A stretch of DNA of 64,000 bases from a virus. The DNA is taken from the IMG/VR virus record IMGVR_UViG_3300028025_000091, positions 1-64,000 of that record. One strand, written 5' to 3'. The notes under the pieces were generated by a model, which saw nothing but the letters and a program-made list of their open reading frames with translations, had not been told where the DNA came from and did no database searches. Shown piece by piece: positions 35,435 through 57,491 of the stretch; positions within the stretch are counted from its first letter, which is position 1, and each line of letters begins with the position of its first letter. Made by a program: the position numbers and the translations under genes.

Positions 35435-36190
35435 ATGATAAGTCTAGTTCAATTATTGAAGGAAGTAAAAGGTACTCCTAAAGCTATATTTTTAGCTGGT
35501 CCTGCGGGAAGTGGAAAATCCTATATATCTTCTAAACTTATCCCCAATACATTTACAGTTATCAATTCAGATGACACTTACGAAGAGTTATTAAAAGCAA
35601 GTGGAATTGGTTTAAAACAAAAAGATTTTACACCTGACCAATTATCTCAAGCTTCTAAATTACAAGCACAAGCTAGAAAAGTTACTCAAGACAAACTAGC
35701 TAAATCAGTAGAAGATAAAAATAATATTGTTATTGATGGAACTGGTGCTGCATCTGGACCTGTATTAAAGAAAAAACAACAACTAGAAGATTTAGGGTAT
35801 GAAACATTGATGTTAATGATCTATGTTTCTCCCTTAACTTCACTTGAACGTAATCAAGAACGTGATAGAAGTTTGATGCCTGGAATTGTATTACGTACTT
35901 GGAGAGATGTAAATAAAAATATTGAAACGTATAAACAAGCGTTTGGTAATAATTTTATCTTATTAAACAACAATCCAAAAGACGCTAAACAAGAGTTTAA
36001 CACTGATTTGCTTGAACCATATATTCAAGCATCTACAGCTGTAGGTAAACCTAAAACACCTGAAGAACAAGCAAAATCAGATGCTGAAAAAGCTCAATTG
36101 AATAAAGATATTGAATCTATGGTTAATCAATTACCTAAATTTGATACTCTAGATACAGCTAAAAATAAAATAAATGAATTCGTTAGTTAA
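35435..36190 (+). CDS. P-loop kinase (Zeta-toxin/Pnk-like)
   Basis: AGPAGSGKS, INSDD, IDGTG, SLERNQER lid. Confidence 0.8.
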   Translation: MISLVQLLKEVKGTPKAIFLAGPAGSGKSYISSKLIPNTFTVINSDDTYEELLKASGIGLKQKDFTPDQLSQASKLQAQARKVTQDKLAKSVEDKNNIVIDGTGAASGPVLKKKQQLEDLGYETLMLMIYVSPLTSLERNQERDRSLMPGIVLRTWRDVNKNIETYKQAFGNNFILLNNNPKDAKQEFNTDLLEPYIQASTAVGKPKTPEEQAKSDAEKAQLNKDIESMVNQLPKFDTLDTAKNKINEFVS

Positions 36191-37871
36191 AGCGCTTATA
36201 CAACCTCTATTAGAAGCAATGCAGAATGGTATTGCTTTAGTACCTGGTGGTTTTAAACCGCCTACAATTGGTCATTTTGCATTGGTAGATGAAGTAGCAA
36301 AATACCCTGGAGTAGATAAAGTGATTGTTCTTATAGGACATAAAACACGTGATGGGGTAACTAAAGAAGAAAGTAAAGCGATATGGGATATTTACAAAAA
36401 ATATCTTCCTTCAAACGTTGAAATACAAATAGCAGATAATGCATCCCCAATTTCAGACGTTGGATCACTAATCAAAAATAATCCGGACACAATGTACTAT
36501 CCTGTAGTAGGGATTAGAGGTGAAATGGATTTAGGTGATTTGAAACGTTTTGATAGCATGAAAGGAAAGTATGAAAATTTTAAACCTATCGTTATTAAAT
36601 CAGAAGAAAGTGAAGACCGTATTAGTGGTACAAACACACGTGCTGCCTTAATTGGTGGGGAAAAAGAAAGATTCCAAACATACCTCCCAACTGAACTCTC
36701 AGATAAAGAAAAAGATGAAGTTTGGAATATATTACAAAAATCCCCTATTGAAGAAATGTATGCTGAACCAAGCAAGTTTAGCTACCCTCCAATGATTAAA
36801 TCACTTACAGAATATATGTTAGATAAAGGTATGAATATTCGTCCTTTACCTAAAGTAAAATTTGTAGATGATGATGCTGAAAACGCTCAAAATTTCTTTG
36901 GTAAAACAGCGTATTATGACCCAAATGAACGCGTTATAGTACTTTACACATATGGACGCCATCCAAAAGATGTTATGCGTTCATACGCGCACGAAATGGT
37001 TCATCATATGCAAAACTGTGATAATCGTTTACAAAATATTTCAACCCAAAATACAAACGAAGAAGGTGATTTACCTGAAATCGAAAGAGAAGCATACGAA
37101 AAAGGAAATATGACTTTCCGTAATTGGACAGATACACTAACTGAAGGTGTATTTGGAGACAGAATAGTATGTGATAATTGTGATTGGAGTTGGAAAATAA
37201 AAGATGGTGGAGATGATTTATACATTTGTCATAAATGTGGGCATGATAATACTCCAACCCCATTAAATGAAGGCCGTTACGATAAAATTACAAATGTTAT
37301 TTCCTCTAAAATCTTTAACCAATGGAGAGAAGATTTTAACAATGGTGCTAAAGCATCTCGTTTAGAACAATTTTTCCCATTTGAAGGTGAAGATATAGAC
37401 ATAGACGCTAATATATCCTTCATTCCAGGAATAGGAGTACTTAGAGTAGATGGAGGTGCTGATGATCAAACAAATTATATTGAAGTAAGATTTGAAATAG
37501 ACCCCGAAAAGCTTCCTGAATTCTGGGAAGAAATTTCAATGAATTTAAAAGATGTTATTCGCCATGAAATAGAACATTTAACTCACGGTGAAGGTGGCTT
37601 ATCTAACCCAGCTAAATATATGGAAGATGATACACTTATTCGTAAAATAATTGATGCTAAATTGTTATCACCTGCTCAATATTTTAAATTAGAAAAAGAA
37701 ATAGATGCTAACCTACAAGGAATGTATCTACGTGCTAAAAAAGAAAAACGTGAATTTAAAGATGTTATAGACACTTATTTGGATGCTCAAGATATAACAC
37801 CTGAAGAAAAAGAAGAAATACTAGATCTTTGGAGAAGCAGATTACCTGCATTAAATTTGCCCAAATTTTAA
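36174..37871 (+). CDS. Multidomain protein: HxGH-type nucleotidyltransferase, HExxH domain, Zn ribbon, second HExxH domain
   Basis: PGGFKPPTIGH and ISGTNTR; AHEMVH; CDNC...CHKC; RHEIEH. Confidence 0.8.
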   Translation: MNSLVKALIQPLLEAMQNGIALVPGGFKPPTIGHFALVDEVAKYPGVDKVIVLIGHKTRDGVTKEESKAIWDIYKKYLPSNVEIQIADNASPISDVGSLIKNNPDTMYYPVVGIRGEMDLGDLKRFDSMKGKYENFKPIVIKSEESEDRISGTNTRAALIGGEKERFQTYLPTELSDKEKDEVWNILQKSPIEEMYAEPSKFSYPPMIKSLTEYMLDKGMNIRPLPKVKFVDDDAENAQNFFGKTAYYDPNERVIVLYTYGRHPKDVMRSYAHEMVHHMQNCDNRLQNISTQNTNEEGDLPEIEREAYEKGNMTFRNWTDTLTEGVFGDRIVCDNCDWSWKIKDGGDDLYICHKCGHDNTPTPLNEGRYDKITNVISSKIFNQWREDFNNGAKASRLEQFFPFEGEDIDIDANISFIPGIGVLRVDGGADDQTNYIEVRFEIDPEKLPEFWEEISMNLKDVIRHEIEHLTHGEGGLSNPAKYMEDDTLIRKIIDAKLLSPAQYFKLEKEIDANLQGMYLRAKKEKREFKDVIDTYLDAQDITPEEKEEILDLWRSRLPALNLPKF

Positions 37872-37872
37872 T

Positions 37873-38406
37873 ATGAAAAAAACACCTACATTATTAGACT
37901 TATACGAGGCCATTAAACCCAAATATACCATTTTTTGTGATATGGATGGTGTGTTAGTTGACTTTGATAAAGGATATGAAGAATTAACGGGTAAACATAC
38001 TAAACACGTTGATTTACAAGACAAAAACGAATTTTGGAGTTTATTAAATCGTAGTTTAAAAGAAAAAGATTTAACAGAATATGATTATTGGGTAAATCTA
38101 GAATGGATGCCTGATGGACAAACACTTTGGGACTATATTAAAGGATACAACCCATATATATTAACGGCTCCTTCAAGAGATCCTGGTTCTAGACAAGGAA
38201 AAACTGAATGGGTTACTCGTTTAGATGGTATGAAAAAATTATATTTTAAACCGGCTTATGCTAAAGCAGAATATGCTGGTAAAAATCGTATACTTATAGA
38301 CGATAGACAAGACACCATTGATAAATGGAATGCTAATGGAGGTATAGGAATTTTTCACACCTCAGCAGCAAACACAATTAAACAACTTCAAAAATTAGGA
38401 CTATAA
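37873..38406 (+). CDS. HAD-family 5'(3')-deoxyribonucleotidase-like phosphatase
   Basis: DMDGVLVDF, ILTAP, K..W, LIDDR. Confidence 0.85.
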   Translation: MKKTPTLLDLYEAIKPKYTIFCDMDGVLVDFDKGYEELTGKHTKHVDLQDKNEFWSLLNRSLKEKDLTEYDYWVNLEWMPDGQTLWDYIKGYNPYILTAPSRDPGSRQGKTEWVTRLDGMKKLYFKPAYAKAEYAGKNRILIDDRQDTIDKWNANGGIGIFHTSAANTIKQLQKLGL

Positions 38407-38978
38407 TGTCAGATTCAGTTTTAAAAAAAGAATTCCAAAAAAGAGACGTAGAACGTTTACGCAACCTGGTAGCAGGTAAACATGGTAATCGTACTACTAT
38501 GGGAATTGGTTATAATGGACCCCAAGAAGAGGAACATAAAGAAGGTGATGTTTGGCAACAAGGTGGTAGAACTTGGACTATTAAAGACGGTATTAAAGAA
38601 AATGTTACTAAGTTAGATAAATTTAAAAAAGTAGCAGTTCCATTATTTTGTCCAAATTGTAAACAAGTAATGGATAAACAATTAGATCCATTTTATTATA
38701 AATCTTATGGTGAATGTTTAGACTGTAGAACAGTTACTGAAACAAAATTAAAAGTTTCGGGTGAATGGCAAGATCATATTAATGAAACATTCAATGCTGA
38801 AATTGATCAACAAATAGAAGAATATAAAAGTTACTTTGAAAATATCCTTTCAGAAGGTAATGAAGGATATGTTTCCGAAAATGGTGAAGTACAAAAATGG
38901 GTTGGTGGAATAGATAGAGAACGTGCAGAACACGCTCTAAGTGAAATGATTAAACATTTAAACTCCCTTAAAAAATAA
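38406..38978 (+). CDS. Hypothetical protein with CxxC-CxxC zinc finger
   Basis: CPNC...CLDC. Confidence 0.75.
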   Translation: MSDSVLKKEFQKRDVERLRNLVAGKHGNRTTMGIGYNGPQEEEHKEGDVWQQGGRTWTIKDGIKENVTKLDKFKKVAVPLFCPNCKQVMDKQLDPFYYKSYGECLDCRTVTETKLKVSGEWQDHINETFNAEIDQQIEEYKSYFENILSEGNEGYVSENGEVQKWVGGIDRERAEHALSEMIKHLNSLKK

Positions 38979-39601
38979 TGGAAACTTTTGCAATGGTAAC
39001 TACAATTGCTGTAGCGTTAATAACAGCAGTATTTGGCCCAATTATAGTAAATTGGGCTAGATTGAAAATGGAAAAGAAAACTAAAGTAACCCCAATGAGA
39101 GAGGCCCTAGAAGCCTCTACTTTAGTTGATAGTCAACTTGAAATCATTCTTGATGAATTAAAATGTGATAGGGTATGGTTACAACAATTCCATAATGGAG
39201 GCCATTTTTACCCTACAGGTAAATCCATTCAAAAATTCTCTATATTTTACGAGAAAACAACCCCAGATCTACCTCATCTGCAACACACATTTCAAAACAT
39301 CCCAGTATCTTTATTCCCTAGAGTGTTATCTAAAATATATCAAGATAACGAAATTGCAATAGATGATGTATCTACATCAGAAGATACTTATGGTTTAGAA
39401 TACATGACTACCAATTTTGGAACCAAATCAGTATGTATGCTTGGCTTATATAGTTTAGATGACCATTTAATTGGTGTGTTAGGTATTTCATTTAAAAAGG
39501 CTCATCATTTGAAAAGAGATGAATGGGTTCTTATTAGACAGAAAGCAGGAGTTATAGGAACACTAATTTCCGAATATTTATACGCAACAACTAAGAAATA
39601 A
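38978..39601 (+). CDS. N-terminal TM plus GAF-like domain protein (candidate T4 T-like holin)
   Basis: Single TM segment; LKCDRVWL.QFHNG...KS..........LIGVLGI GAF-like pattern. Confidence 0.55.
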   Translation: METFAMVTTIAVALITAVFGPIIVNWARLKMEKKTKVTPMREALEASTLVDSQLEIILDELKCDRVWLQQFHNGGHFYPTGKSIQKFSIFYEKTTPDLPHLQHTFQNIPVSLFPRVLSKIYQDNEIAIDDVSTSEDTYGLEYMTTNFGTKSVCMLGLYSLDDHLIGVLGISFKKAHHLKRDEWVLIRQKAGVIGTLISEYLYATTKK

Positions 39602-39619
39602 CTTAATATTTATAATAAA

Positions 39620-40207
39620 ATGGCAGATAATTTTGACCTAAAAAAATTCTTAAAAGAAAGCAAAGCTCTTGAGAATTTAAATCCTTCAATGAAATCAGTT
39701 AACGAAAACGAATCTCGTGAAGAGAGAGCTGACGTAGACAAATACGAATACGAAAAAGGAAAAAAAGCTGGTAAACGCGAAGATATGAAAGCAAAAATCA
39801 AAGAAATGATTGTTGCTGAATTAGCTGAAGAAGTTACTACTGATAATGCAGATACAGATGATGCAGCCTTAAATGCTGATTATAGTTTTCTAGCTGAAGA
39901 AGGTGAGGAAGTAGAAGAAGCTAAGAAAAAAGATAAAGAAGCTGATGTAGAAGACGTTGAAGTAACTGATACTGACGTTGAAGATGTTTCTATGGAAGAC
40001 GAAATTCCTGCTGAAGAAGCACCTGCTGCTGATGGCGGAATCGAAGACTTAGCAGCTGATATGAAAGGTACAGAAGCAGATCTTATGGACCATTTAATGA
40101 AAGCATTCCAGATTGCCAAAGGAATGCAAAATGAAAAACTTGAAACACAAGTAGGAAATACACTGAAATTCTTCGTTAGCGAATATATCGGTGGAGGTGA
40201 GCAATAA
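39620..40207 (+). CDS. Acidic prohead core-like protein
   Basis: Late promoter; D/E-rich with many (L/I/V)xE sites. Confidence 0.6.
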   Translation: MADNFDLKKFLKESKALENLNPSMKSVNENESREERADVDKYEYEKGKKAGKREDMKAKIKEMIVAELAEEVTTDNADTDDAALNADYSFLAEEGEEVEEAKKKDKEADVEDVEVTDTDVEDVSMEDEIPAEEAPAADGGIEDLAADMKGTEADLMDHLMKAFQIAKGMQNEKLETQVGNTLKFFVSEYIGGGEQ

Positions 40208-40231
40208 TTAAATCTATAATAAATCAAATCT

Positions 40232-40402
40232 ATGAACACAACAGAAATTTTAAACGCAATCAAAGAAGAATTAGTTACATTAGAGGCTGAACATGGTAAA
40301 ACATCTAAAGCAGCTCGTGGACGCGCACGTAGCGCAGCTAATTCAATTAAAAAATTGGCAGCTGAATTTAAAAAGACTTCAACTGCTGAAGACAAAGCTT
40401 AA
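40232..40402 (+). CDS. Hc1-like (Bacteroidota histone H1-like) small protein, 56 aa, not in ORF track
   Basis: MNTTEILNAIKEELVTLEAEHGKTSKAARGRARSAANSIKKLAAEFKKTSTAEDKA; KAAxxRARxA....KL..EF.K.S signature. Confidence 0.75.
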   Translation: MNTTEILNAIKEELVTLEAEHGKTSKAARGRARSAANSIKKLAAEFKKTSTAEDKA

Positions 40403-40404
40403 CA

Positions 40405-41184: not shown

Positions 41185-41651
41185 TGGATAGCAACGAACT
41201 TAAAAATAGACTTAAGGTATTAGTTAAGCAAGTGTACTCCAATAGGACAGTTACACCTGAAGAAGCCGTTCAATATGATGAACTAACAAAATTCCCTGAG
41301 CTAAAAGCAGTTATCGTTGACCTATTAACCCCAGAATATGATAGCTTTTTAGCTTCAATTGATTGGGTTGCTCCTCGTCCTACTACATTCCGTATCAACT
41401 TAAAAAACGATCAATCATTTTATTTGATATATGGTAAACGTAGTTGGGTTGCTCAAGTAGCAGGCAAAAAATATTATTTACTCAATTTACCTGAAGAAGA
41501 AAGAGCATCAGAAGCGATTGCAAATCTTTTACGTTTTGGGGCTAAAGCAGCAGCTGAAGAAACAGGAGCAGGAATTGATAGTCTTGAAACTCCAGCTGAA
41601 ACTCCATCTGAAACACCACCAATCGAAACACCAGAAGAAACACCAGCATAA
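41184..41651 (+). CDS. Hypothetical protein with ETP-repeat tail
   Basis: ORF track. Confidence 0.7.
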   Translation: MDSNELKNRLKVLVKQVYSNRTVTPEEAVQYDELTKFPELKAVIVDLLTPEYDSFLASIDWVAPRPTTFRINLKNDQSFYLIYGKRSWVAQVAGKKYYLLNLPEEERASEAIANLLRFGAKAAAEETGAGIDSLETPAETPSETPPIETPEETPA

Positions 41652-43122: not shown

Positions 43123-44088
43123 ATGGATAAAGCACGTTTAAAACAACTTATTAAAGAAGTACTATCTACCCCTCCTAAAGAAAAATGTGATTGTGGTTGT
43201 GGTGGTTGTGACGGCTCAAGTAATTCTGGTGTTACACTAAATGAAAGTTTAGTTAAAAAAGATATATTATCGAAAAATCTGCGATACCACGTTGATAAAC
43301 AACTCCCACTTACCGAAAACACGTTCCGATATGGTTCCGAATCATTCCTTAATTTATGGGCAGAAGCTCGTTCATTATATTTACGTGAAATTATTCATGT
43401 AAACGAAGATGATAAACAGATTCTTGAAGAAACTGATTTAGGTAACTTTGGTTTATATGAAAATCAAAGAGTAGCTTTAGATATGCTTATGTTGGAGGAA
43501 GATGAAGAAGAACTAAACATAGGAGATATTATTGAAATTAACCCTAAAGAATTTCCTAACTTTGAATTTCCATACGGTACTGAAGGCGAAATTGAAGATA
43601 TAAACAAAGCAGATTACGCTAGTGACGATTTAGTCTATACCGTTAAAATCAAATATATTGATAGTCAAGGAGATGAAGCTAATACTTTACATATTGAAAA
43701 TTCATCTCAATACCTAGACGAAAACTCCCCAGCATATAAAGGCCCTGAAGGATATGACGATTCATGTGATTGTTATCCTGAGGATAAACTTGAAGAAGCT
43801 GAAGATAAAAAGAAAAATCCACCACTTGGAAAACCAAAACGTGGAGGATCTAAAAAATTCTATGTTTACGTAAAAAATCCTAAAACTAAAAAAATTAAAA
43901 AAGTTAGTTTTGGAGACACATCTGGTTTATCAGCTAAAATAAACAACCCAGAAGCACGTAGAGCATTTGCTGCACGTCACGATTGTAAAAATAAAACAGA
44001 TAAAACCAAAGCATCTTATTGGTCATGTCGTTTACCTCGATATGCTAAATTACTTGGATTAAAATCATCTTTTTCAGGATTCTGGTGA
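43123..44088 (+). CDS. Modular late protein with basic C-terminal domain (KKFYVYV...VSFG...ARHDC...YWSC)
   Basis: ORF track; late promoter; the C-terminal motif resembles an unknown-function domain of T4-like phages. Confidence 0.7.
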   Translation: MDKARLKQLIKEVLSTPPKEKCDCGCGGCDGSSNSGVTLNESLVKKDILSKNLRYHVDKQLPLTENTFRYGSESFLNLWAEARSLYLREIIHVNEDDKQILEETDLGNFGLYENQRVALDMLMLEEDEEELNIGDIIEINPKEFPNFEFPYGTEGEIEDINKADYASDDLVYTVKIKYIDSQGDEANTLHIENSSQYLDENSPAYKGPEGYDDSCDCYPEDKLEEAEDKKKNPPLGKPKRGGSKKFYVYVKNPKTKKIKKVSFGDTSGLSAKINNPEARRAFAARHDCKNKTDKTKASYWSCRLPRYAKLLGLKSSFSGFW

Positions 44089-44492
44089 TGGATAGATTAC
44101 AGAAACTTATTAACGAAGTTCTTGAAGAACAAAAAAGCAAACGTGACAGATGTTTACGTATTGCTGACCGTAAGTTTGATAAACCATCGGCTTACAAATC
44201 CGGTGCTGTAGTTAGATGCCGTAAAGGTAATATTTGGAAAGGTATTAAAGAAGAAGTAATTCGAGAAAAAGCTAAAGAAACTCTCCGCACTTGGTTCAAA
44301 CGTAAAGGTGCACCTGGTAAAAAAGGTGGATGGGTAGATTGCAATACTTGCCGTGAAGTAGACGGTAAAATAAAATGTAAAGCATGCGGCAGAGAAAAAG
44401 GAGAAAAACGTTCAAAATATCCTTCATGTCGCCCTACAGCAGCACAATGTAAAACACCTGGTAAAGGTACTAAATGGGGAAAAACAAAATGA
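44088..44492 (+). CDS. Basic Cys-rich hypothetical protein (PSAYxSG / LRxWF..GGWV..CGR..YPxCRP)
   Basis: ORF track (GTG at 44085 or ATG at 44088). Confidence 0.7.
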   Translation: MDRLQKLINEVLEEQKSKRDRCLRIADRKFDKPSAYKSGAVVRCRKGNIWKGIKEEVIREKAKETLRTWFKRKGAPGKKGGWVDCNTCREVDGKIKCKACGREKGEKRSKYPSCRPTAAQCKTPGKGTKWGKTK

Positions 44493-44914
44493 TTAAACTA
44501 CTTGAAATATTAAGCGAAGCTGAATCAAATAAATGTCCTATTCCAACTCAAAATATAGAGTTAAATTTGCAAAATAGACAAAAAGCAATTAATGAATATG
44601 GGTATGGGCCTTTAAACCCAAATGAACCAAATGAAAAATTTTGGCAATCCAAAGCAGATATGTGGCAACTTGATTCAGTAGAAGAAGCTAAAACTTCACG
44701 TTGTGGTAATTGTGCTGCATTTGATGTTACAACAAAAACTTTAGATTGCATAGCTAAAGGAATAGGTGATGATGAAGGTACAGAAGATCCATTTGACGTT
44801 ATTAAAGCTGGAAAATTAGGATATTGTAGAATGCTTAAATTTAAATGTGCTGCTGCTCGAACTTGTGATGCTTGGGTTGTTGGTGGTCCAATTACAGATG
44901 ACAAAACCATATAA
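44489..44914 (+). CDS. Cys-rich protein with CxxC...C...C (HiPIP-like spacing); start probably 44489
   Basis: RCGNCAAF...GYC....FKC....TCDAW. Confidence 0.65.
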   Translation: MIKLLEILSEAESNKCPIPTQNIELNLQNRQKAINEYGYGPLNPNEPNEKFWQSKADMWQLDSVEEAKTSRCGNCAAFDVTTKTLDCIAKGIGDDEGTEDPFDVIKAGKLGYCRMLKFKCAAARTCDAWVVGGPITDDKTI

Positions 44915-45161
44915 CGACATAGAAGTTACTGACAAATATATTATTCGTGAATTTAACGAAAATATAGACCCAATAGAACTTATGTGGCACCGTGATGATG
45001 AAGATAGAACCGTTGAAATTTTAAATGAAACAGATTGGCAACTTCAGCTAGATAATAGCTTGCCTACTTCATTAAAAGAACGTATATTTATACCAAGACA
45101 CGAATGGCATCGTGTAATAAAAGGAACAGGAACACTCAAGTTAAAAATACATAAATCATGA
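44898..45161 (+). CDS. Small cupin-like protein (start probably 44898)
   Basis: WHRD.EDR...IFIP..EWHRVIKG. Confidence 0.65.
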   Translation: MTKPYNDIEVTDKYIIREFNENIDPIELMWHRDDEDRTVEILNETDWQLQLDNSLPTSLKERIFIPRHEWHRVIKGTGTLKLKIHKS

Positions 45162-45508
45162 AATTAGATAACTTAAAAGAATTAGTAAAAGAAGAACTTA
45201 AACGTGCTTTAAATGAAGAAGGTGATGAAATTTCATCTATTAAAACTTTAGAGGATGCTATAGCTTTTTTAAATAACAACAAACAAAAAATTCTCCAAAT
45301 TGCAGATAAACATGCTGGGGATGTTCAAAAAATGCAACATGATATTGATGTATTTCTTCAACCATACCTTATAGACACTCCCGAATTTATAGCTAACAAA
45401 ATCAAAGCAGCTATCGGTGGTGCTATTAGTAAAAGAAACATTAAAAACACACCAGAACTTTCCCAAACATACGATAAACTAAAAAACGTAAAAGGATTTG
45501 TAGGATAA
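45158..45508 (+). CDS. Hypothetical protein with LKELVKEEL..ALNE leader
   Basis: ORF track. Confidence 0.7.
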   Translation: MKLDNLKELVKEELKRALNEEGDEISSIKTLEDAIAFLNNNKQKILQIADKHAGDVQKMQHDIDVFLQPYLIDTPEFIANKIKAAIGGAISKRNIKNTPELSQTYDKLKNVKGFVG

Positions 45509-45588: not shown

Positions 45589-45617
45589 ATTTCGTATATT
45601 TAAACATAAAATAGATT

Positions 45618-46931
45618 ATGGACAAAAAAATAGTAATAGTAGGAGCAGGCGTTGCCGGTGTCAACGCTGCAACAAAGTTAGTGGATAATGGATATCCTGG
45701 AGAATTAATCACAATCATTGATATGGGTAAAGATCCATATAAACGTTTACCTGAAGAAGTAATGACAGGTTTTTTAGGTGCTGGAGGTTGGTCTGATGGT
45801 AAATTAACTTACCACACAGCAATTGGAGGCCAATTGTCAAAATATACAGGCGAGGATAAAGCAATGGAATTGATGGATCAAGTGATTACCAATTTCAAAC
45901 GTTTTCACCCTAAACCTGAAGAAGTACAATGTTCAAATCCTGTTGAGGAACCTGAATTTATTAAACCATATTTCGGTTTACGTTTATTCCCAGTATGGCA
46001 TGTAGGAACAGATTATTTATCTGAAATTGCTAAAAATTGGTACGATTATTTAGTTGATAATGGAGTTGATTTTAGATGGGAAACTAAAGTAACATCTATT
46101 AACTTCAAAAATAATCATGTATCGTGTGATATTTTAAATAGTGAATTAGGACTCCAGTTAGATTATGATGAGCTTATTTTTGGTGTAGGTAAATCAGGTA
46201 TTGATTTCGCTCAACAATTAGCCCAAGAATATGAATTACCAGATGAACCTAAATCAGTACAAATTGGAGTTCGATTTGAGGCACCACAAGAACATTTCCA
46301 AAAACTAATTGATATTTCATATGACTTTAAGTTATATAGAAAATTTGATGATGAAGGAGTATCGTTACGTTCATTCTGTACAAATAATAATGCTGCTTAT
46401 GTTGCTGTAGAAGAAACATATGGAGATCACAGTTACAATGGTCACGCTAAAAAAGACGAAGCATATAGAAACAATATGACTAACTTTGGTATATTAATGG
46501 AAATTAATGGTATTGAAGATCCATTTACTTGGTCACGTGATGTAGTAAATAAAGTACAGGCAAACGGAACTGGTTTGTATTATAGCCCATCTCGTACACC
46601 ATCAACTACATCTGAAGGTAATAATGTAACTTCAACACAAATCAGTTTAGATACACTTACTCATGTTGTAGAACCTGCAATGGGTGGTTATTTCAAATAC
46701 GTTATGGACTTTATCATGGATATGAAAAAAGTATTCCCTACACTTGGAGACGATTGGGGAATGTATATTCCTGAAGTAAAATATTTGTCACCTGAGGTAA
46801 AAGTAGATTATAGTAATCTTAGTCTAATCGATTATCCTAACGTACATTTCGTAGGTGATGCTTTAAGTGCACGTGGTATTACAGTGTCGGGAGCGCAAGC
46901 AATTTATGTAGCAGAAAGTTTTTTAAAATAA
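45618..46931 (+). CDS. FAD-dependent oxidoreductase (uncharacterised COG2509-like family)
   Basis: GAGVAG Rossmann motif, GAGGWSDGKL, HVGTD, IGVRFE, RSFC.N, FVGD...RGI. Confidence 0.85.
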   Translation: MDKKIVIVGAGVAGVNAATKLVDNGYPGELITIIDMGKDPYKRLPEEVMTGFLGAGGWSDGKLTYHTAIGGQLSKYTGEDKAMELMDQVITNFKRFHPKPEEVQCSNPVEEPEFIKPYFGLRLFPVWHVGTDYLSEIAKNWYDYLVDNGVDFRWETKVTSINFKNNHVSCDILNSELGLQLDYDELIFGVGKSGIDFAQQLAQEYELPDEPKSVQIGVRFEAPQEHFQKLIDISYDFKLYRKFDDEGVSLRSFCTNNNAAYVAVEETYGDHSYNGHAKKDEAYRNNMTNFGILMEINGIEDPFTWSRDVVNKVQANGTGLYYSPSRTPSTTSEGNNVTSTQISLDTLTHVVEPAMGGYFKYVMDFIMDMKKVFPTLGDDWGMYIPEVKYLSPEVKVDYSNLSLIDYPNVHFVGDALSARGITVSGAQAIYVAESFLK

Positions 46932-46936
46932 AAGTT

Positions 46937-47467
46937 ATGAAAATAGGATTTACAGGAACAATGTCAGTTGGTAAAACAACATTAGTTAATGCATTAAAGG
47001 AATTACCTGAATTTGCTGAATATGAGTTTAGAACTGAGCGTTCAAAATATTTACGTGATATGGGTATTCCATTGAATACTGATTCAACATTAAAAGGTCA
47101 AATTATTTTCTTTGCTGAACGTTCAAGTGAATTATTTCACAATGATATGATTACTGATCGTACTGTGATTGATGTAATGGCGTTTACGCGTTTAGCTAAA
47201 TCGATTCCATATTTTATGGCAGACGCATTGAATGATGCTGTATCGCATTTAATACGCGAATATGATTATATTTTTTATATTTCACCTGAAGGTGTAGAAT
47301 TAGAAGATAATGGTGTTCGTACTATAGATGCAAAGTATAGAAATGAAATTGATAAAGAAATTCAAAAGTTGATTTTGAAACATAAAAGTAAATTTAAATC
47401 ATATCATGAATTATCGGGTACTACCGAGGAGAGAATTGAGAAAATTAAACAAGTAATGTCCCTTTAA
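46937..47467 (+). CDS. NadR/AAA_28-like P-loop nucleotide kinase
   Basis: GTMSVGKTT, DRTVID, YDYIFY, EDNGVR. Confidence 0.8.
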   Translation: MKIGFTGTMSVGKTTLVNALKELPEFAEYEFRTERSKYLRDMGIPLNTDSTLKGQIIFFAERSSELFHNDMITDRTVIDVMAFTRLAKSIPYFMADALNDAVSHLIREYDYIFYISPEGVELEDNGVRTIDAKYRNEIDKEIQKLILKHKSKFKSYHELSGTTEERIEKIKQVMSL

Positions 47468-47488: not shown

Positions 47489-48382
47489 ATGAAAAAAGAT
47501 CGTTTACTTGAAATTATACGTGAAGAAATCAACGAAGCATTAAATGTACTAATAACCAATAAAAAAGGTGAAACTACCACAATGCCATATAATACTCCAG
47601 ATGAAAAAAAATCAGTAATGAATCTTAAACAAGATAATAACATTACAAATATTGAAACTACTGCGGGTCAAAATATTAAAGAGGAAGAAAAAGTAAAAAA
47701 ATTAGCTGAAAAATACCAACTTGATGAAGAAACCATCAATGAAATGGCTAGTATTAAACAGTTAAAAAGTGAATTAGCAAGACAAGGAAAAGAAGCTGAA
47801 TTGAAAGCTGTTGCTGATGCCGAACGTGCTGCTTTAGATACTTTAAAAGCAGACCCTACAATTACCCCAGACGGGCGATTAAAAGGATATGTTCCTACAC
47901 TTAAAAAAGAATTGTTAAATACACACAATATTAAATTACAAGATTTATTATCTAAAGTAGCTGGAAAAGCTGAAGATGATGGTGTGAAATTTAGCAGTGA
48001 TATCGCTACTAACACTATTGAAAAAGATGCTGCTAATCAATTAACCGGAAAAGAAGCTGGTCAACGTGGTAGAAAAGCAACTGAAAAACCAGCTAAAGCA
48101 GAAAAAGCACCTAAAGTAGAACCTAAAAAATCAGAATCTACAGATGACGAAGATGTGGAAGCGGTAAAAGCAGCAGGTAGCGACGAAACAGCAAAAGAAT
48201 TAGGTAGCACACCTGAAGAAAAAAAAGTAAAATTCAACCAATTTCTAGCATCCGTTAAGAAAAATAAAGACGATAAAGCTAAAATTGATGGTATTTTAAA
48301 ATTAGCAAAAGATAAATTTAAATTTGCTAAAACAATGATGGATGATTTAAAACGTGCTGCTGGTAGAGAAGTAGAAGCGTAA
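47489..48382 (+). CDS. Charged probable head-internal protein
   Basis: Late promoter; LLEIIREEINE leader; contains RGRK. Confidence 0.6.
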   Translation: MKKDRLLEIIREEINEALNVLITNKKGETTTMPYNTPDEKKSVMNLKQDNNITNIETTAGQNIKEEEKVKKLAEKYQLDEETINEMASIKQLKSELARQGKEAELKAVADAERAALDTLKADPTITPDGRLKGYVPTLKKELLNTHNIKLQDLLSKVAGKAEDDGVKFSSDIATNTIEKDAANQLTGKEAGQRGRKATEKPAKAEKAPKVEPKKSESTDDEDVEAVKAAGSDETAKELGSTPEEKKVKFNQFLASVKKNKDDKAKIDGILKLAKDKFKFAKTMMDDLKRAAGREVEA

Positions 48383-48744
48383 TGAAAGATAAAACATTTA
48401 AAATAAAGTTATCCCATCTTATCATAGGTGGGATACTTTTATTGTTACTTATATTTTTAGTTAAATGTAAACCTACTACTACCTTAACCGTAGACAAATA
48501 CGCTAAAGAAAAAAAAGAAATTGATAGTTTACAACACAATATTTTCTTGTTAAAAGAAGGTCAACGTATACTAACTAACAATGTTAATAAACAAGTTATA
48601 GTAATTGATTCATTAGAAGAAGAAATCATTATCACAGAAAAAGAGCTAACACAAACACGCACATACTATGGCAACAAAATTAAGGATCTTACTAGTGCTT
48701 CTGATACTGAGCTTGAACAGTTTTTCACAAATCGATACCAATAG
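48382..48744 (+). CDS. Membrane-anchored coiled-coil protein (candidate spanin subunit)
   Basis: N-terminal hydrophobic helix ending LVKC; coiled coil. Confidence 0.5.
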   Translation: MKDKTFKIKLSHLIIGGILLLLLIFLVKCKPTTTLTVDKYAKEKKEIDSLQHNIFLLKEGQRILTNNVNKQVIVIDSLEEEIIITEKELTQTRTYYGNKIKDLTSASDTELEQFFTNRYQ

Positions 48745-49096
48745 AATCTGTTTCTCGTATAGTAAAGCAAAATCAATCGCTCTTGATTTAGTCAAAGGTG
48801 ATTCTGCTATTGCTGAACTTAAATTAGCCAATAAATTGATTTGGCAATTAAATGAAAAAAGCGATGCTCAAGATAGTTTAGTTACTTTATATATAGATAA
48901 AGAACAAAATTACATGGGACAGATAGCAAATTATGATCAAATCCTTTTAAAACAAGAATCAATCATAACAGGTCTTGAAAGTGATGTTAAAACACTAACT
49001 CGCAAAAACGATATCCTTAAAAAAGGACTTAAATGGTTAGGTGGAGGATTCATGGCTTCCCTACTATCTGTTGTTACATTGGTAACAATTAAATAA
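48668..49096 (+). CDS. Signal-peptide coiled-coil protein with C-terminal TM (candidate spanin partner)
   Basis: SFS|Q signal; hydrophobic C-terminus; 77-bp overlap with the previous gene. Confidence 0.5.
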   Translation: MATKLRILLVLLILSLNSFSQIDTNRICFSYSKAKSIALDLVKGDSAIAELKLANKLIWQLNEKSDAQDSLVTLYIDKEQNYMGQIANYDQILLKQESIITGLESDVKTLTRKNDILKKGLKWLGGGFMASLLSVVTLVTIK

Positions 49097-52643: not shown

Positions 52644-53501
52644 ATGCAAGTTAAACATTCAAAGTATAAAAATACTGGTATCCTTTTCGAACTATTAGTT
52701 CGTCAAATCACCACAGATACATTAGATGGTAAGGATTCACCGGCTAAAGATATACTAAAAAAATATTTCGTTAAAACGGAATTGGGTCGTGAGTACAAGT
52801 TATATGAAACGTTATTGAAAAAAACATCGTTAACTGAAGCTAAAGCAAATATTGTTGTTAGTACATTAACTGAATCTTCACTTACCTTAAATAGAGGGGT
52901 TATTAAACGTCAAAAATATAATCTGATTAGCGAAATCCAAAAACATTATGATTTAAATGAATTTTTTAATCATAAGCTTCCTAATTATAAAGTATTTGCT
53001 GCGTTTTATACGTTGTTAGAAATTACTAACACACCTAAAAACGCTGACCTTGACCAAACGATCAACAATAAAGTGACTATTTTAGAACACTTAACTGCTG
53101 CTCAAATTACAGAAGGTAAAGTACGTGATGAAGTGATGGATGAATTCAATAATGTTGATAAAGATGTACGTTTATTAGCTTATAAAATGCTTTTAGAAAG
53201 TTTCAATACTAAATACGATACATTACATACTAAACAAAAAGAAATTCTTAAAGAGTATATTACTTCAATTGATAATACTTCTCGTTTAAAAGAATTCTAT
53301 ACTAATAAAATTAATGAAATTAAAGAAACATTAACTTCATTAAATGAAAATACTAAAAACGAAGTTACCAAAATCAAAATCAACGAAATTATTAATATCA
53401 TTACCATTCCAGCTAAAAATGCTAAGATAAATGATGATAATCTAGTTGATTTGTTACAATATTACGATTTAATTAATGAATTAGAAACTGTAAATGTCTA
53501 A
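52644..53501 (+). CDS. Head morphogenesis hypothetical protein
   Basis: Late promoter; between portal and protease. Confidence 0.7.
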   Translation: MQVKHSKYKNTGILFELLVRQITTDTLDGKDSPAKDILKKYFVKTELGREYKLYETLLKKTSLTEAKANIVVSTLTESSLTLNRGVIKRQKYNLISEIQKHYDLNEFFNHKLPNYKVFAAFYTLLEITNTPKNADLDQTINNKVTILEHLTAAQITEGKVRDEVMDEFNNVDKDVRLLAYKMLLESFNTKYDTLHTKQKEILKEYITSIDNTSRLKEFYTNKINEIKETLTSLNENTKNEVTKIKINEIINIITIPAKNAKINDDNLVDLLQYYDLINELETVNV

Positions 53502-53994
53502 ACTTAAAGAAATAATTCGTAAAAAACTTAAAGAAGTAAGCGCTACCGGAATGGGTGGCGCTACTGCTATTCCTGGTGAAGGTATAGGAATGGCTACTAA
53601 ATATGCCTTTAAAAAAACTAAAATTAAAGAAGGACCTGGAGCTACTTTAGGTATGGGTCCAAGTGCTGGTTCCGAAGGTGTAAAAGATAATGCTTACGTA
53701 AAGCAATTTAAATATAAACTAGTACCTAAAAAAATTAAAGGATCTGGTTTAGAAGTTAAACAACTTTGGGAAGAAGATATACTAAACGAAGTAAATGAAT
53801 TTCAACAAAAACGTTTAGATGCATTAGATGAAATTGAAACATTAATGAATGAAATAGGTCCATTAATTTCAAACGCTAAAAACGAAACAATTGAACTATA
53901 TAGCGGAAACGCAGGTTCGTATGACATAACAAAACCAATTGAAATGGTAAAGAGTTATCTCCAAGACATAAAACAACTATTATCAGAAAAATAA
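53494..53994 (+). CDS. Probable prohead core/internal protein
   Basis: MSKLKEIIRKKLKE leader. Confidence 0.6.
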   Translation: MSKLKEIIRKKLKEVSATGMGGATAIPGEGIGMATKYAFKKTKIKEGPGATLGMGPSAGSEGVKDNAYVKQFKYKLVPKKIKGSGLEVKQLWEEDILNEVNEFQQKRLDALDEIETLMNEIGPLISNAKNETIELYSGNAGSYDITKPIEMVKSYLQDIKQLLSEK

Positions 53995-55433
53995 TGAAAA
54001 AGACACTACAAGATCAGTATTTGTTAATTAAAGAAGGTAAAGGACACAAAGGTGTTTTTTTAACTGAAGCAAAACGTCAATTCCCTAATATCGTTCGTAA
54101 CGCAGCTACATTTGATGAAGCCGCAGCATCTCTTATTACTAAAAACATTATTACAGAAAATGTAATTGGTTTATCGGTAGTTGCTGGATATGAGCCTAAG
54201 AAAAAAGAATCATACGAAACCGCATTTGAAAATTTCTTAGCAGAGGCTGCTAAAAAGAAAGAAAATGAAGACGAAAAAGTAAAAGCTGAAGAGAAAAAAG
54301 TATCTAAAAAAGTTGAAGAAGATGCTTCCCATAACTTCAATAATTCAGATGAAAAAAATCCTGATAATATGATCTTTGGTCAAATTATGATGGGTTATTA
54401 TGCTGAAATGAAAGATCCTAAAAATGCTGATAAAACGATGCAAGAATTAAAAGACATCGTATTTAAAAATTTATCAAAAGACCCAATTTACTATACAAAA
54501 GATGGTCAATTCGGAGTTAAAGATTTAGGATATACAACTGAAGCGCCTGCTTTAGGTGAACCAAAAGAAGCTAAAGGAAAATACAAATCATCAGGATATG
54601 GTGATTTAAAAGAAGGTGTAGAGAAATTTATGTCTGATGTTAAAGATGCTGTAACTAAAAAAGGTGATAGCAAATTTACACCTGAAGAAATTAAAGCTAA
54701 ATTAAAAAAGAAACGCGAAGAAGAACTTGATCGTAGAAAAAAAGCAGGTGAATCACTTGAAGAAATTACATTACGTGAAGTAATTCAAAATATGATTGAT
54801 GAAGAATTAAATAGAGACGAATATAAAGATGCTTTATTTAAAATGGAACAACCACATTTAAATGATAAAGAAGCATTAGATAATATTCAACAAATATATA
54901 AATCCCATATTGCTGGATTAAATTCAATTAGTCAAGATTTAAAAGAAGGTGTAGAAAAAGATTTAGCTGCTATTAATAAAGAAGCAGAACATGAAGTTCT
55001 ACAATCTAAATTAGAAAAAATTCAAGCACTTATCGACAAAAAACAATCCCAACTAACCAAATTAGATGAGGATGAAGATATGAAAAATCTTACTGACGAT
55101 AAAAAAGTTAAAGAAATTTCAAAAGACATTAAAGCTCTAGAAAAAGCAAAAGCTAAATTAGAAAAATTGATGGGTAAAAAAGGTGGTAAAGCTAAAAAAG
55201 TAGAAGTCATTGATGAGATGGATAATGCTGAAGAAGCTGTAGCTGACATTGCTCCTGAATATATTGAAGATGCTGATAAAAGATTAAGAGCTGGAGAAGA
55301 AATTGATTCAATTCTTAGCAACTATCAAAATTTATCATTTGATGATAGAAATCATTTAAGAAATTACCTTGACTGGAAACAATCCTCAGACATTGGACAA
55401 AGTGAAGAATTAGGAGCTGAAGACCAATACTAA
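53994..55433 (+). CDS. Charged probable prohead core/internal protein
   Basis: K/E-rich with many (L/I)xE sites; adjacent to the protease gene. Confidence 0.6.
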   Translation: MKKTLQDQYLLIKEGKGHKGVFLTEAKRQFPNIVRNAATFDEAAASLITKNIITENVIGLSVVAGYEPKKKESYETAFENFLAEAAKKKENEDEKVKAEEKKVSKKVEEDASHNFNNSDEKNPDNMIFGQIMMGYYAEMKDPKNADKTMQELKDIVFKNLSKDPIYYTKDGQFGVKDLGYTTEAPALGEPKEAKGKYKSSGYGDLKEGVEKFMSDVKDAVTKKGDSKFTPEEIKAKLKKKREEELDRRKKAGESLEEITLREVIQNMIDEELNRDEYKDALFKMEQPHLNDKEALDNIQQIYKSHIAGLNSISQDLKEGVEKDLAAINKEAEHEVLQSKLEKIQALIDKKQSQLTKLDEDEDMKNLTDDKKVKEISKDIKALEKAKAKLEKLMGKKGGKAKKVEVIDEMDNAEEAVADIAPEYIEDADKRLRAGEEIDSILSNYQNLSFDDRNHLRNYLDWKQSSDIGQSEELGAEDQY

Positions 55434-55434
55434 G

Positions 55435-56067
55435 ATGAATAAACAACTACTAATAGAAACCAGACATTTCAGTCCAAAACCACTTACGTTATTGGAAGGA
55501 ATGAAAACCAACGGAAATGTTTTCGTTGAAGGAATATTGGCTACAGTTGAAGTTAAAAACGGTAATGGCCGTTATTACCCTAGAGAATTATGGGAACGTG
55601 AAATCGACAATTTTGCACGTAAAATCCAAATGAAATCTACTGAGACATGTGGTGAATTAGACCATCCTGACTCGCAAGTAATCAACCTTAAAAACGCATC
55701 TCATGCGATACGTGAATTGTATTGGAAAGGTGATGAAATATGGGGTAAAGTAGAAATTTTCTCTGATATGGGTGATTTAGGTACCTCATCTGGTCGTATA
55801 GCTGGAGCGTTAGTTAAAAATGGCCTATTGATTGGTATTTCTTCTCGTGGAATGGGTTCATTAAAACAAGTTGGTGAAATAATGGAGGTACAAGATGACT
55901 TCGAATTATTAACTTGGGATTTAGTTTCCAACCCATCAAATCCAGATTCATGGATGAAAAACGGTGCGTTAAACGAATCACGTACTACATATTTAGATCC
56001 ATACGCTAAAACAAACTCACTTATTACCGAAATTTTATGTGCTAAAGGCACGTGTCCTATATTTTAA
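55435..56067 (+). CDS. gp21: Prohead core protease (gp21-like)
   Basis: KNGNGRYYP, GELDHP, SH, GISSRGMGS, WDLVSNPS. Confidence 0.95.
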   Translation: MNKQLLIETRHFSPKPLTLLEGMKTNGNVFVEGILATVEVKNGNGRYYPRELWEREIDNFARKIQMKSTETCGELDHPDSQVINLKNASHAIRELYWKGDEIWGKVEIFSDMGDLGTSSGRIAGALVKNGLLIGISSRGMGSLKQVGEIMEVQDDFELLTWDLVSNPSNPDSWMKNGALNESRTTYLDPYAKTNSLITEILCAKGTCPIF

Positions 56068-56090
56068 AATATGCAAACCGGTGAAAAACT

Positions 56091-56116
56091 AGCCCTCATT
56101 TGAGGGCTTTTTTTTT
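56091..56116 (+). terminator. Rho-independent terminator
   Basis: AGCCCTCA-TT-TGAGGGCT followed by a long T-run. Confidence 0.85.
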
Positions 56117-56255
56117 CTTTGTGACTTTGAATATATCAACACATACATATAACCCGAATATGTCACTCCCTCACACTATCATGTGACATCAATTAAATGA
56201 ATTCTATTACGTTTTATAATAAACGTACTTTCCCAACAAAATTAATTTAGGAAAA

Positions 56256-57491
56256 ATGGCAACAAACAGAGAAATGCTTAAAGAAGCAATCGCTGACGCT
56301 AAAGCTGTTAAAGAAACTGCAATAGCAAACGCAAAAGCTGCTCTAGAAGAAGCCTTCGCACCTCAATTGAAATCAATGTTATCAATGAAACTTCAAGAAA
56401 TGGAATCCGAAGAGGAAGAAATTAAAGAAGCTGGATTTGGAGATTTTGACACTAAAGAAAACACTACATTCAATACAATGGGTGAAAAAGCTTTAGATGA
56501 AGAAGAAGACATGACGAATGAAATTGATTTGGAAGAACTTTTAGCGGAGCTAAACGAAGAGGAAGATGTGGAAGAATCTATCAACGAAGCCGAAGAAGAG
56601 GAAGAAGACGAAGAGTCTGAAGAATCTGAAGAAGGTGAAGAAGAAGGTGAACCAATCGAACTCGAAGACATGACAGACGAAGATCTAAAAGACATGATCG
56701 AAGATGTTATTAAAGACATGATTTCATCCGGAGAACTTGAAGCTGGTCACGAAGGTGGAGAAGGCGAAGAAGAAGGTGAAGAATCAGAAGAAAGCGAAGA
56801 AGAAGAAATCGACTTAGCAGAATTATTAAGAGAAATCGAAGAAATGGAAGAACCAGTAGACGAAATCTTTGGAATTAAACCAGGTGCAGTTAGACGTTTA
56901 GAAAAGTCAATGCCTGGATTCTTAGACAAAGTTAAAGCTATGGATTCCCCAGAAGAGAAAGCAGCTGCATTAAAAGCAATTGCTGATCCTGCAGGTGAAT
57001 TCAAACGTGGATTCGAAAGCGCTTCATCTTGGATGAATGATGTATCTTCAATCTTTGACTATGTAGGTGCTAGAAGCCCATTCAAAACCTCAGTAGGTGA
57101 TACAGGTGTACCATCTCCATCAGGTGCGAATGAAGCTATGAAAGCTGAATTAGACGAAGCTATTTCAACAATCGAAGCTCTTAAGTCTGAATTGAACGAA
57201 ATCAATTTGTTAAATGCTAAATTGCTTTACACAAATAAAATCTTCAAAGCTAAAAACTTGAATGAAAGTCAAAAAGTGAAAGTGTTAAGTTCTTTTGACA
57301 AAGCTAAAAACGTAGGTGAAGTGAAAATGGTATTTGAAACATTAAACGAGGGTATTAAAGTTTCTAAAAACATCATTAAAGAAAACCTAGGTAGTGCTTC
57401 TAAAGGAACAATGACGCCTAACGTTAAAAAACCAATCGTAGAGTCAAACGAGGCATTCTTAAGAATGCAAAAATTGGCTGGAATTATTTAA
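56256..57491 (+). CDS. Prohead scaffold protein (gp22-like)
   Basis: Very acidic coiled coil between protease and capsid genes; C-terminal RMQKLAGI. Confidence 0.8.
   Translation: MATNREMLKEAIADAKAVKETAIANAKAALEEAFAPQLKSMLSMKLQEMESEEEEIKEAGFGDFDTKENTTFNTMGEKALDEEEDMTNEIDLEELLAELNEEEDVEESINEAEEEEEDEESEESEEGEEEGEPIELEDMTDEDLKDMIEDVIKDMISSGELEAGHEGGEGEEEGEESEESEEEEIDLAELLREIEEMEEPVDEIFGIKPGAVRRLEKSMPGFLDKVKAMDSPEEKAAALKAIADPAGEFKRGFESASSWMNDVSSIFDYVGARSPFKTSVGDTGVPSPSGANEAMKAELDEAISTIEALKSELNEINLLNAKLLYTNKIFKAKNLNESQKVKVLSSFDKAKNVGEVKMVFETLNEGIKVSKNIIKENLGSASKGTMTPNVKKPIVESNEAFLRMQKLAGII

Follow-up and report, generated by a model that had tools for sequence, protein, structure and literature searches.

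Portable N-terminal tags ending in a head-protease motif mark candidate capsid cargo beside the T4-like head module of a phage genome

The stretch of DNA analyzed here (the window; positions 1–64,000 of IMG/VR virus record IMGVR_UViG_3300028025_000091) corresponds to the first 64 kb of a complete phage genome of 173,789 bp with a G+C content of ~31%, in which 238 of 250 open reading frames (ORFs) are carried on the plus strand. Within the window, a block of 25 genes (35.4–57.5 kb) encodes many proteins with unrelated bodies that begin with a short amphipathic tag ending in hydrophobic-x-Glu; the prohead protease of phage T4, gp21, cleaves after L/I-x-E (PMC9026906). By analogy with T4, the tagged proteins of the block, enzymes included, are probably packed into the virion. 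The head genes follow a T4-like order, from the large terminase (49096) and portal (50706) through three genes in the place of the T4 core genes (52644, 53494, and 53994) to the protease (55435), scaffold (56256), and capsid protein (57518), and the tagged block genes described below lie on the plus strand, as do 52644, the protease, the scaffold, and the capsid protein. Because a megablast of the head module against cultured phages returned no match, relatives were sought by protein search. The nearest cultured phages were Flavobacterium phage vB_FspM_immuto (capsid protein 57% identical), Microcystis phage Mel-JY01, and Rhodothermus phage RM378, and one scan of viral contigs recovered 597 related protease loci. 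The comparative set consisted of 107 related loci, and the portability of N-termini was assessed on 1,561 proteins from the phage genome and its relatives.

The protease that a targeting system of this kind requires is encoded in the head module itself, between the portal and core-position genes and the genes for the scaffold and capsid protein. This prohead serine protease (55435..56067) belongs to the T4 gp21 family (Pfam Peptidase_S77 PF03420, 1.3e-27; PHROG 207 head maturation protease, 2.7e-48) and carries L-I-E at residues 6–8 (55450–55458), where its N-terminal QLLIE↓T (arrow after the motif's Glu) is the same as in T4 gp21, which has an LIE-9 site (PMC9026906), and L-N-E at residues 179–181 (55969–55977), 29 residues from the C-terminus. 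The acidic scaffold protein (411 residues, 56256..57491) begins with MLKE and, in an alignment of 14 relatives, has invariant L-N-E at residues 313–315, 335–337, and 363–365 and I-V-E at residues 394–396 (57435–57443). The propeptide of the gp23-like capsid protein (residues 1–61, 57518..57700; Pfam Gp23, 7e-73) ends QLVVE↓QSS and aligns on SFLTE↓A of T4 gp23 (Glu65), with the sequence after the Glu variable in relatives.

The core-position genes and the scaffold are rich in a single form of the site. The 285-residue protein directly after the portal (52644..53501), in the position of a T4 core gene, has no N-terminal tag and shows no sequence similarity to T4 gp68; it possesses five hydrophobic-Asn-Glu sites (0.29 expected, p = 1.3e-5), and the protein is conserved in immuto and Mel-JY01. 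The following 166-residue protein (53494..53994; tag MSKLKEIIRKKLKE, 53494–53535) has three such sites (0.17 expected) and an L-K-E↓M-S-A-T conserved in 59 homologues, and the 479-residue protein after it (53994..55433; tag MKKTLQDQYLLIKE, 53994–54035) has a leader identity of 0.99 compared to 0.59 for the body, with A-I-Q-E↓GK retained in the immuto homologue. For the core-position proteins, no credible Pfam match emerged at E-values up to 1. With five sites in the scaffold (0.42 expected), the block as a whole contains 26 hydrophobic-Asn-Glu tripeptides against 7.1 expected (3.6-fold), compared to a 1.35-fold excess elsewhere, a richness that would be expected for core proteins that are chopped like T4 gp22, gp67, and gp68. 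A first-pass annotation of this DNA had listed the leader-bearing proteins of the block as injected effectors; for the core-position genes from 52644 onward (53494 and 53994 included), 47489, the protease, and the scaffold this has to be modified, as they resemble parts of the prohead core or scaffold that are cut up, and several of the listed proteins are probably core parts and not effectors.

Three predicted enzymes open the block. The first is a P-loop kinase (Zeta-toxin/AAA_33-like, 251 residues, 35435..36190; Pfam Zeta_toxin, 3e-12) with the tag MISLVQLLKE (35435–35464). The second is a cytidylyltransferase-like (NMNAT-like) nucleotidyltransferase (565 residues, 36174..37871; PHROG cytidyltransferase, 8.5e-12) with a 14-residue tag, MNSLVKALIQPLLE (36174–36215), which is conserved and followed by a variable five-residue linker, such that identity dips sharply after Glu14 (0.24 for the next six residues). 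Two HExxH motifs lie behind its cytidylyltransferase-like domain (HEMVHH at residue 273 and HEIEH at residue 464), and for this reason the nucleotidyltransferase is a multi-domain protein with possible metalloprotease-like modules; relatives span 325 to 1021 residues through the gain and loss of modules, and a search of PDB sequences gave no hit. The third is a HAD-type 5'(3')-deoxyribonucleotidase (177 residues, 37873..38406; PHROG, 3e-31) with the tag MKKTPTLLDLYE (37873–37908); its alignment in a PDB sequence search begins at residue 20. The L-Y-E of the nucleotidase is conserved, variants without its Glu acquire I-I-x-E four residues further on, and some variants bear a MISL-type tag like that of the kinase. 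Fusions of the nucleotidase behind a tagged nucleotidyltransferase lack the nucleotidase's own tag and show VMNE↓ at the junction; the immuto fusion, in which another nucleotidyltransferase module precedes the cytidylyltransferase-like domain, has TLAE↓ at the equivalent position.

Six further proteins of the block carry tags of different lengths and types. An acidic 195-residue protein (39620..40207) has an NFDLKKFLKE-class tag (39620–39658) and V-N-E at residues 27–29, and is preceded at 39608 by an exact copy of ATTTATAATAAA, a late-promoter-like box. A Cys-rich 321-residue protein (43123..44088) with the tag MDKARLKQLIKE (43123–43158) has a conserved (V/T/M)-L-N-E site at residue 41 (43237–43245), and one of its relatives begins at the Cys motif without a tag. 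For the next two genes the start codons are to be moved, to ATG 44088 (TGATG overlap with the upstream stop) and ATG 44489 (ATGA overlap), which yields exact 10-residue leaders: MDRLQKLINE (44088–44117) on a DUF5872 protein (44088..44492; Pfam DUF5872, 4e-7), with L4, L7, I8, and E10 in agreement with the T4 pattern, and MIKLLEILSE (44489–44518) on a Cys-containing protein (44489..44914) for which a single homologue was recovered. A 116-residue protein (45158..45508) has a 20-residue tag, MKLDNLKELVKEELKRALNE (45158–45217), shared by unrelated bodies. Lastly, a 297-residue mosaic protein (47489..48382) combines the tag MKKDRLLEIIREEINE (47489–47536) with an I-N-E joint at residues 83–85 (47735–47743). 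Its family alignment has invariant columns in the leader (residues 1–18), and E85 is the sole invariant column between residues 18 and 221; the joint takes the form (I/L)-(N/A/D)-E with at least four alternative modules downstream, and tag variants have either I14-x-E16 or L18-x-E20, never both. The C-terminus of this family (...MMDDLKRAAGR(E/D)VE(A/V)) bears a faint likeness to the scaffold tail RMQKLAGII described below and could be a diverged C-terminal anchor.

All of the leader-like N-termini quoted in the first-pass annotation were found in the sequence where it had placed them, and their distribution along the genome could be compared. A strict pattern (hydrophobic-x-x-hydrophobic-hydrophobic-x-E ending at residue 6–18) occurred in 24 of 238 genes genome-wide, where internal windows of these proteins led to an expectation of 7.4 (binomial p = 5e-7). 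When restricted to ends at residues 8–16, it was present in 8/25 block genes, 2/70 early genes, 2/74 other late genes, and 8/69 genes at 111–160 kb (block vs rest, Fisher p = 2.6e-4). The looser (L/I)-x-E ending at residues 8–16 was found in 16/25 block genes compared to 10/70 early genes (p = 5.9e-6), so that the refuting condition set in the first-pass annotation, an equal frequency among early ORFs, did not hold. When N-terminal 20-mers were compared all against all, 21 pairs passed the top threshold, compared to 1 to 7 in shuffled or internal controls, and this unbiased clustering resolved a hub group of eight genes (19208, 43123, 44085, 45158, 47489, 53494, 69911, and 140443). An oxidoreductase (45618–46931) and a kinase (46937–47467) inside the block (45618..47467, plus strand) serve as a negative control: as previously noted both are leaderless, with N-termini that start at nucleotide-binding strands, and the oxidoreductase is preceded by an early-type TCGTATATT box at 45592. 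The late-promoter-like box ATTTATAATAAA occurred at chance level when up to two mismatches were allowed (76 vs 75 expected), and only exact or one-mismatch copies located ~12 to 45 bases (mostly 20) upstream of a start codon are suggestive; expression timing was therefore given no weight.

Conservation within families indicates that the tags are under selection as peptides. Across 14 homologues of the kinase (30–92% identical to 35435), M1, I2, L4, L7, L8, and E10 are among the invariant columns, while the codons beneath them differ synonymously (Leu4 by five codons; Ser3, in the same tag, by both codon families). A role for the tags as a recombination joint or regulatory signal at the DNA level was ruled out because tag codons vary synonymously, in the kinase and in other tags. 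In T4, the N-terminal decapeptide of IPIII is sufficient for packaging, with residues 4 and 7 governing targeting and residues 8 and 10 governing processing (PMC9026906), and the invariant L4, L7, L8, and E10 of the kinase are the positions that are experimentally critical in the T4 targeting sequence. The T4 tags conform to the same pattern (MKTYQEFIAE; gp24, MAKINELLRE; Alt, MELITELFDE); in the block, 44088 and 44489 fit the T4 positions exactly, the 12- to 14-residue tags are shifted by 2–4, and the nucleotidase matches only in its final L-x-E. The ratio of leader to body conservation was 0.68–1.19 in eleven control families (lowest in the terminase, with the leaderless controls at 0.74–1.19) and was raised for the kinase (1.62), 39620 (1.73), 47489 (1.89), 53494 (1.46), 53994 (1.66), and the scaffold (1.50). 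Selection on the site is also apparent as compensation, in that a tag that has lost its Glu has a new hydrophobic-x-Glu nearby (47489 and nucleotidase families). As tagged cargo the nucleotidase stands only in part, its L-Y-E being conserved but its ratio reaching only 1.09 and its fit to the pattern partial, which makes the case for its membership of the tagged set moderate to weak.

The tags also move between proteins. Among the 1,561 proteins, 116 pairs (28 pairs of body families) shared at least 14 of their first 20 residues without detectable homology of the bodies, compared to zero pairs for residues 31–50, residues 51–70, or the last 20 residues. The tag MKLDNLKxLVKEELKRALNE heads five unrelated body families, two of them in the phage genome (45158 and 69911), with synonymous variation of its codons and similarity that stops right after A-L-N-E; more generally, similarity between differing bodies ends immediately after hydrophobic-x-Glu. 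Further portable groups were MSNFDL(R/K)KYLAEGKLLKE and ...F.RMQKLAGI(L/I)TE. Portability is not specific to capsid tags, because the test also picked up tail-fibre N-terminal anchors and the N-terminal domain of the 41651 family. In the latter (window positions 41651–43111; PHROG 1462), the N-terminal 27–50 residues (MDILEKF...YKFPKGYPDM) are kept on four different C-terminal bodies in relatives, and on this comparison the domain is a second kind of portable N-terminal module. A tblastn search of a 22-residue tag against the phage collection gave no match even at an E-value of 10, and the tags are thus not traceable in this way.

In place of the single shared leader originally claimed, at least three tag classes were found, swapped on orthologous bodies: (a) 10- to 14-residue tags of the form hydrophobic-x-x-hydrophobic-hydrophobic-x-Glu, (b) NFDLKKFLxE, and (c) RMQxLAGI(I/L)xE. 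Syntenic counterparts of 39620 carry RMQQLAGLITE in one relative and MKKSELKEMIK..LSE in another, which argues that the classes are functionally equivalent. Class (c) has a counterpart in the scaffold, the C-terminus of which reads ...PIVE↓SNEAFLRMQKLAGII (57444–57488) in each of the 14 relatives aligned; the scaffold closes with ...RWQKLAGIIK in immuto and with ...ILNE↓SNNVVERMKKLAGIVK in Mel-JY01. The scaffold-tail motif forms the N-terminal tag on 144902, on a 2H-phosphoesterase (148412), and, in relatives, on seven body families; the N-terminal copies always have (I/L)-x-E immediately after the motif. Among the proteins of relatives it was located at 65 scaffold C-termini, 12 N-termini, and one internal site, and in the phage proteome it was seen four times, all at protein termini, against ~0.004 expected by a composition estimate made by hand. 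In both settings, scaffold tail and N-terminal tag, a protease site divides the motif from the rest of the protein, suggesting that the motif acts as a detachable anchor for the binding partner of the scaffold tail. T4 gp22 ends ...VYAKVASRF, with no evident counterpart of the motif.

Homologues of the nucleotidyltransferase in cyanophages provide a link to virion proteomes. A distant homologue of 36174 was found in cyanophage P-TIM68 (27.7% identity, E-value 6e-4), and the cyanophage cytidyltransferase family is present at near full length in more than 380 cyanophage records. Five cyanophage homologues had their N-termini examined, and all begin with a canonical T4-type decapeptide of the MKxFxxF(L/F)xE↓A type: Syn19 (MKKFSAFLNE↓A), P-SSM3 (MKKFSAFLKE↓A), S-B68 (MKNFNSFLTE↓A), ACG-2014f (MRSFLTFLTE↓A), and P-TIM68 (MKSFTSFFTE↓ARV, compared to MKTYQEFIAE↓ARV in T4 IPII). 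A cytidylyltransferase and a kinase were detected in CsCl-purified S-CREM2 virions, and the same study describes cytidyltransferases and kinases as frequent in cyanophage virion proteomes (PMC10665884). A literature search returned no paper connecting the cyanophage cytidyltransferases or kinases with a targeting tag. Large genes that directly follow the cytidyltransferases in P-TIM68 (6946–9966) and Syn19 (1313–1443) start MINPLNE... and MNLNELPD..., respectively, and because L-N-E occurs within their first seven residues their products may be processed too.

A second set of tag-like N-termini lies at 138–149 kb, just after phage GroES/GroEL-like genes (136419–138405), and includes 140091 (MDNFDLKKYLAE), 140443 (MKKEQLRQLIKE), 144902 and 148412 with RMQxLAGI tags, and 145758, read from its sequence as a probable PD-(D/E)XK nuclease. 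At 138667–140091, a 474-residue protein has MKLTDILHEIGE at its start, a repeat, MKLTDILREIEG, around residue 156, and YRMKKLAGL at its end; it looks like two fused tagged modules with a scaffold-tail-like C-terminus. Leader-like N-termini are thus enriched in the late head block but not restricted to it.

Taken together, the patterns fit a model in which proteins made late would carry a short amphipathic N-terminal tag from one of at least three interchangeable classes, through which they would dock to the scaffold core while the prohead is being assembled. Class (c) presumably binds the partner of the scaffold tail, because it copies that tail, and this partner would most likely be either the core or the inner surface of the capsid shell. 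The gp21-family protease would then cut after hydrophobic-x-Glu, with hydrophobic-Asn-Glu preferred in this phage lineage, thereby freeing cargo from its tag, splitting multi-module proteins at their joints, and degrading the scaffold and core. Freed cargo would remain in the head and probably exit with the DNA. Targeting and cleavage of this kind is, on balance, the account we favor for the block as a whole. The best candidates for cargo are 35435, 36174, 39620, 43123, 45158, 47489, 53494, and 53994, and 37873, 44088, and 44489 are doubtful. A more elaborate version is put forward only tentatively: a multi-code address system in which three tag classes would load at least 15 proteins, one class would mimic the contact of the scaffold with the shell or core and be freed by the cut that detaches the scaffold, and the kinase, NMNAT-like nucleotidyltransferase, and nucleotidase would be delivered with the DNA and act ahead of any phage gene expression, for example by restoring nucleotides or NAD-type cofactors hit by host defence. 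The concept of an expandable, tag-addressed cargo, also advanced in the first-pass annotation, is not new, as diverse cargo addressed by tags has already been proposed for T-even phages (PMC3012670, PMC9026906), and since targeting-sequence cargo of T-even phages is in print the mechanism is counted as known. The portable-leader reading is supported in part, its core being the occurrence of portable tags with a head-protease motif on unrelated proteins beside a T4-type head module, with its details corrected as above.

Several observations weigh against this model. Docking, cleavage, retention in the virion, and ejection are all drawn from analogy with T4. The strict pattern matches 18 of 243 ORFs in T4 itself (7.5 expected; a ~2.4-fold N-terminal excess), of which only four to six are known as packaged or cleaved (IPII, IPIII, Alt, gp24, and perhaps gp2 and 61.1). 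With a precision of ~25–30% in T4, the strict pattern alone is a poor predictor, and the case must therefore be carried by further evidence. The pattern also matches the terminase, the N-terminus of which is poorly conserved; this match (MEERNLKQVIRE) was rejected as a tag and attributed to chance because the leader/body ratio is 0.68, the N-terminus being the least conserved part of the protein. Leader/body ratios were close to one or lower for the nucleotidyltransferase (1.02), the nucleotidase, and 44088 (0.74), and the leader-like N-termini at 138–149 kb sit on probable replication or repair enzymes. For the cyanophage proteome, its authors caution that abundant soluble proteins may be carried along when virions are purified (PMC10665884).

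The alternative that best withstands the evidence, though we consider it unlikely, is that only the head-module proteins (scaffold, protease, capsid protein, 52644, 53494, 53994, and probably 47489 and 45158) are substrates or core parts, and that the kinase, nucleotidyltransferase, and nucleotidase are late cytoplasmic enzymes with tag-like helices. Beyond the low precision of the pattern in T4 and the near-unity ratios of the nucleotidyltransferase and nucleotidase, the tag helix of the nucleotidase has a predicted local distance difference test (pLDDT) score of about 80 in its AlphaFold2 model and could be part of the fold; the N-terminal helix of the kinase aligns weakly with a Zeta toxin helix in a PDB sequence search. 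However, across homologues of 30–92% identity the kinase tag never varies at the four positions critical in T4, and this best-conserved segment of the protein is modelled with the lowest confidence (mean pLDDT 55 for the first 10 residues and <50 for residues 9–11, compared to 84–97 for most of the domain). The variable linker after the nucleotidyltransferase tag, the T4-type decapeptides of the cyanophage homologues and the reported presence of such enzymes in virion proteomes (PMC10665884), and the loss of the nucleotidase tag only in fusions behind a tagged protein likewise speak against purely cytoplasmic enzymes.

A second alternative, that the tags are selected for another role, such as docking to a chaperone, membrane, or assembly factory, recognition by a modifying enzyme, or control of stability, appears quite improbable. 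The cluster at 138–149 kb adjoins the phage GroES/GroEL genes and lies near replication genes, as such a role might predict, but the protease motif closes every tag class, one class is identical to the scaffold tail, and the tags mirror the positions mapped experimentally in T4. A SPASM-domain radical-SAM enzyme was sought in the whole genome as a partner for the tags; no SPASM match was found and this candidate was rejected, the sole radical-SAM-like match being one below the Pfam cut-off (Radical_SAM, 120180–120437) among probable 7-deazaguanine genes. That there is no system, and that N-terminal helices rich in K, E, L, and I are a by-product of an AT-rich genome and codon preference after the start, with (L/I)-x-E too short to be informative, is very improbable: the G+C content of ~31%, the 694 occurrences of (L/I)-x-E in the proteome, and the similar and mostly unexplained N-terminal excess in T4 would allow it, but early genes of equal composition are at background (2/70 strict, 10/70 loose), shuffled and internal controls yield far fewer similar pairs, portability is 116 pairs compared to none in controls, and synonymous variation accompanies invariance of the amino acids.

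Other features of the genome lie near or apart from the tagged genes. A membrane protein (38978–39601) within the block is itself without a tag, as is a signal-peptide-like protein (MATKLRILLVLLILSLNSFSQ; 48668–49096) immediately before the terminase gene. A small basic protein of 56 residues (...KAARGRARSAANSIKKLAA; 40232–40402) is very conserved and lies between 39620 and 40405 in nearly all relatives, with a late-promoter-like box, at one mismatch, 20 bases upstream of its gene. Near the right end of the record, small genes at 172656–173098 and 173307–173749 (MKQDKEIGYY..., MKLFKSNWGQ...) have first 32 residues that are identical in a second copy ~650 bases away, suggesting that the region was tandemly duplicated or belongs to a terminal repeat.

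If the targeting-and-cleavage model is correct, the first proteins delivered to the cell could be read off the sequence by their tags, and the three-protein paradigm of T4 would extend to a large and widespread group of uncultured phages (>590 related head loci). It would also account for the recurrence of kinases and cytidyltransferases in cyanophage virion proteomes. The novel elements are the extent of the system in a distant, mostly uncultured lineage, the existence of several tag classes that can replace one another, the fact that one of these is identical to the scaffold tail, the joints at cut sites, and the enzymatic cargo candidates. The identity between class (c) and the scaffold tail offers a concrete, testable model for how a targeting tag acts, which is unsettled even in T4, and the tags would be usable as handles for putting foreign proteins into phage heads.

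Among known systems, the closest is the capsid targeting of T4 (IPI, IPII, IPIII, and Alt, with gp21), with which the phage shares an S77-family protease, a tag of ~10 residues with hydrophobic positions 4, 7, and 8 and Glu at position 10, the placement of tags on unrelated bodies, a scaffold and capsid protein that carry the same type of cut site, and a T4-like head module. It differs in its tags, which span 10 to 20 residues and fall into at least three classes compared to one in T4, in a preference for hydrophobic-Asn-Glu sites with multi-module proteins joined at cut sites, in a far larger candidate cargo with a kinase, an NMNAT-like nucleotidyltransferase, and a nucleotidase among its members, and in one class that copies the C-terminal tail of the scaffold. 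Scaffolding proteins, such as that of phage P22, have a C-terminal coat-binding domain that is short, conserved, and separable. The scaffold here likewise has a conserved C-terminal element, in this case preceded by an I-V-E or L-N-E cut site, and by analogy with P22-type scaffolds its tail may bind the capsid protein; to our knowledge, the reuse of a scaffold tail as an N-terminal cargo tag has not previously been described. The virion enzymes of cyanophages (S-CREM2 and others) are of the same types and are encoded in T4-like genomes, but they were detected by mass spectrometry, with no link to a tag drawn in that report's section on virion-associated proteins (PMC10665884), whereas here the tag is read from the genes; the cyanophage kinase is APH/ChoK-like, compared to the Zeta/AAA_33-like kinase of this phage. 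In the giant phages phiKZ, 201phi2-1, and SPN3US, too, numerous proteins inside the head bear propeptides that a diverged gp21 homologue removes by cutting after Glu, and a large cargo of proteins leaves together with the DNA (PMC9026906), though the site is S/A-x-E, no short portable N-terminal tag has been described for them, and capsid size and lineage are different. In the Dar system of phage P1 (DarA, Hdf, and others), accessory proteins are similarly loaded into the head at assembly and delivered with the DNA (PMC9024508, PMC12810830), but loading follows an ordered hierarchy of protein–protein interactions rather than a short portable tag, and the head module is unrelated.

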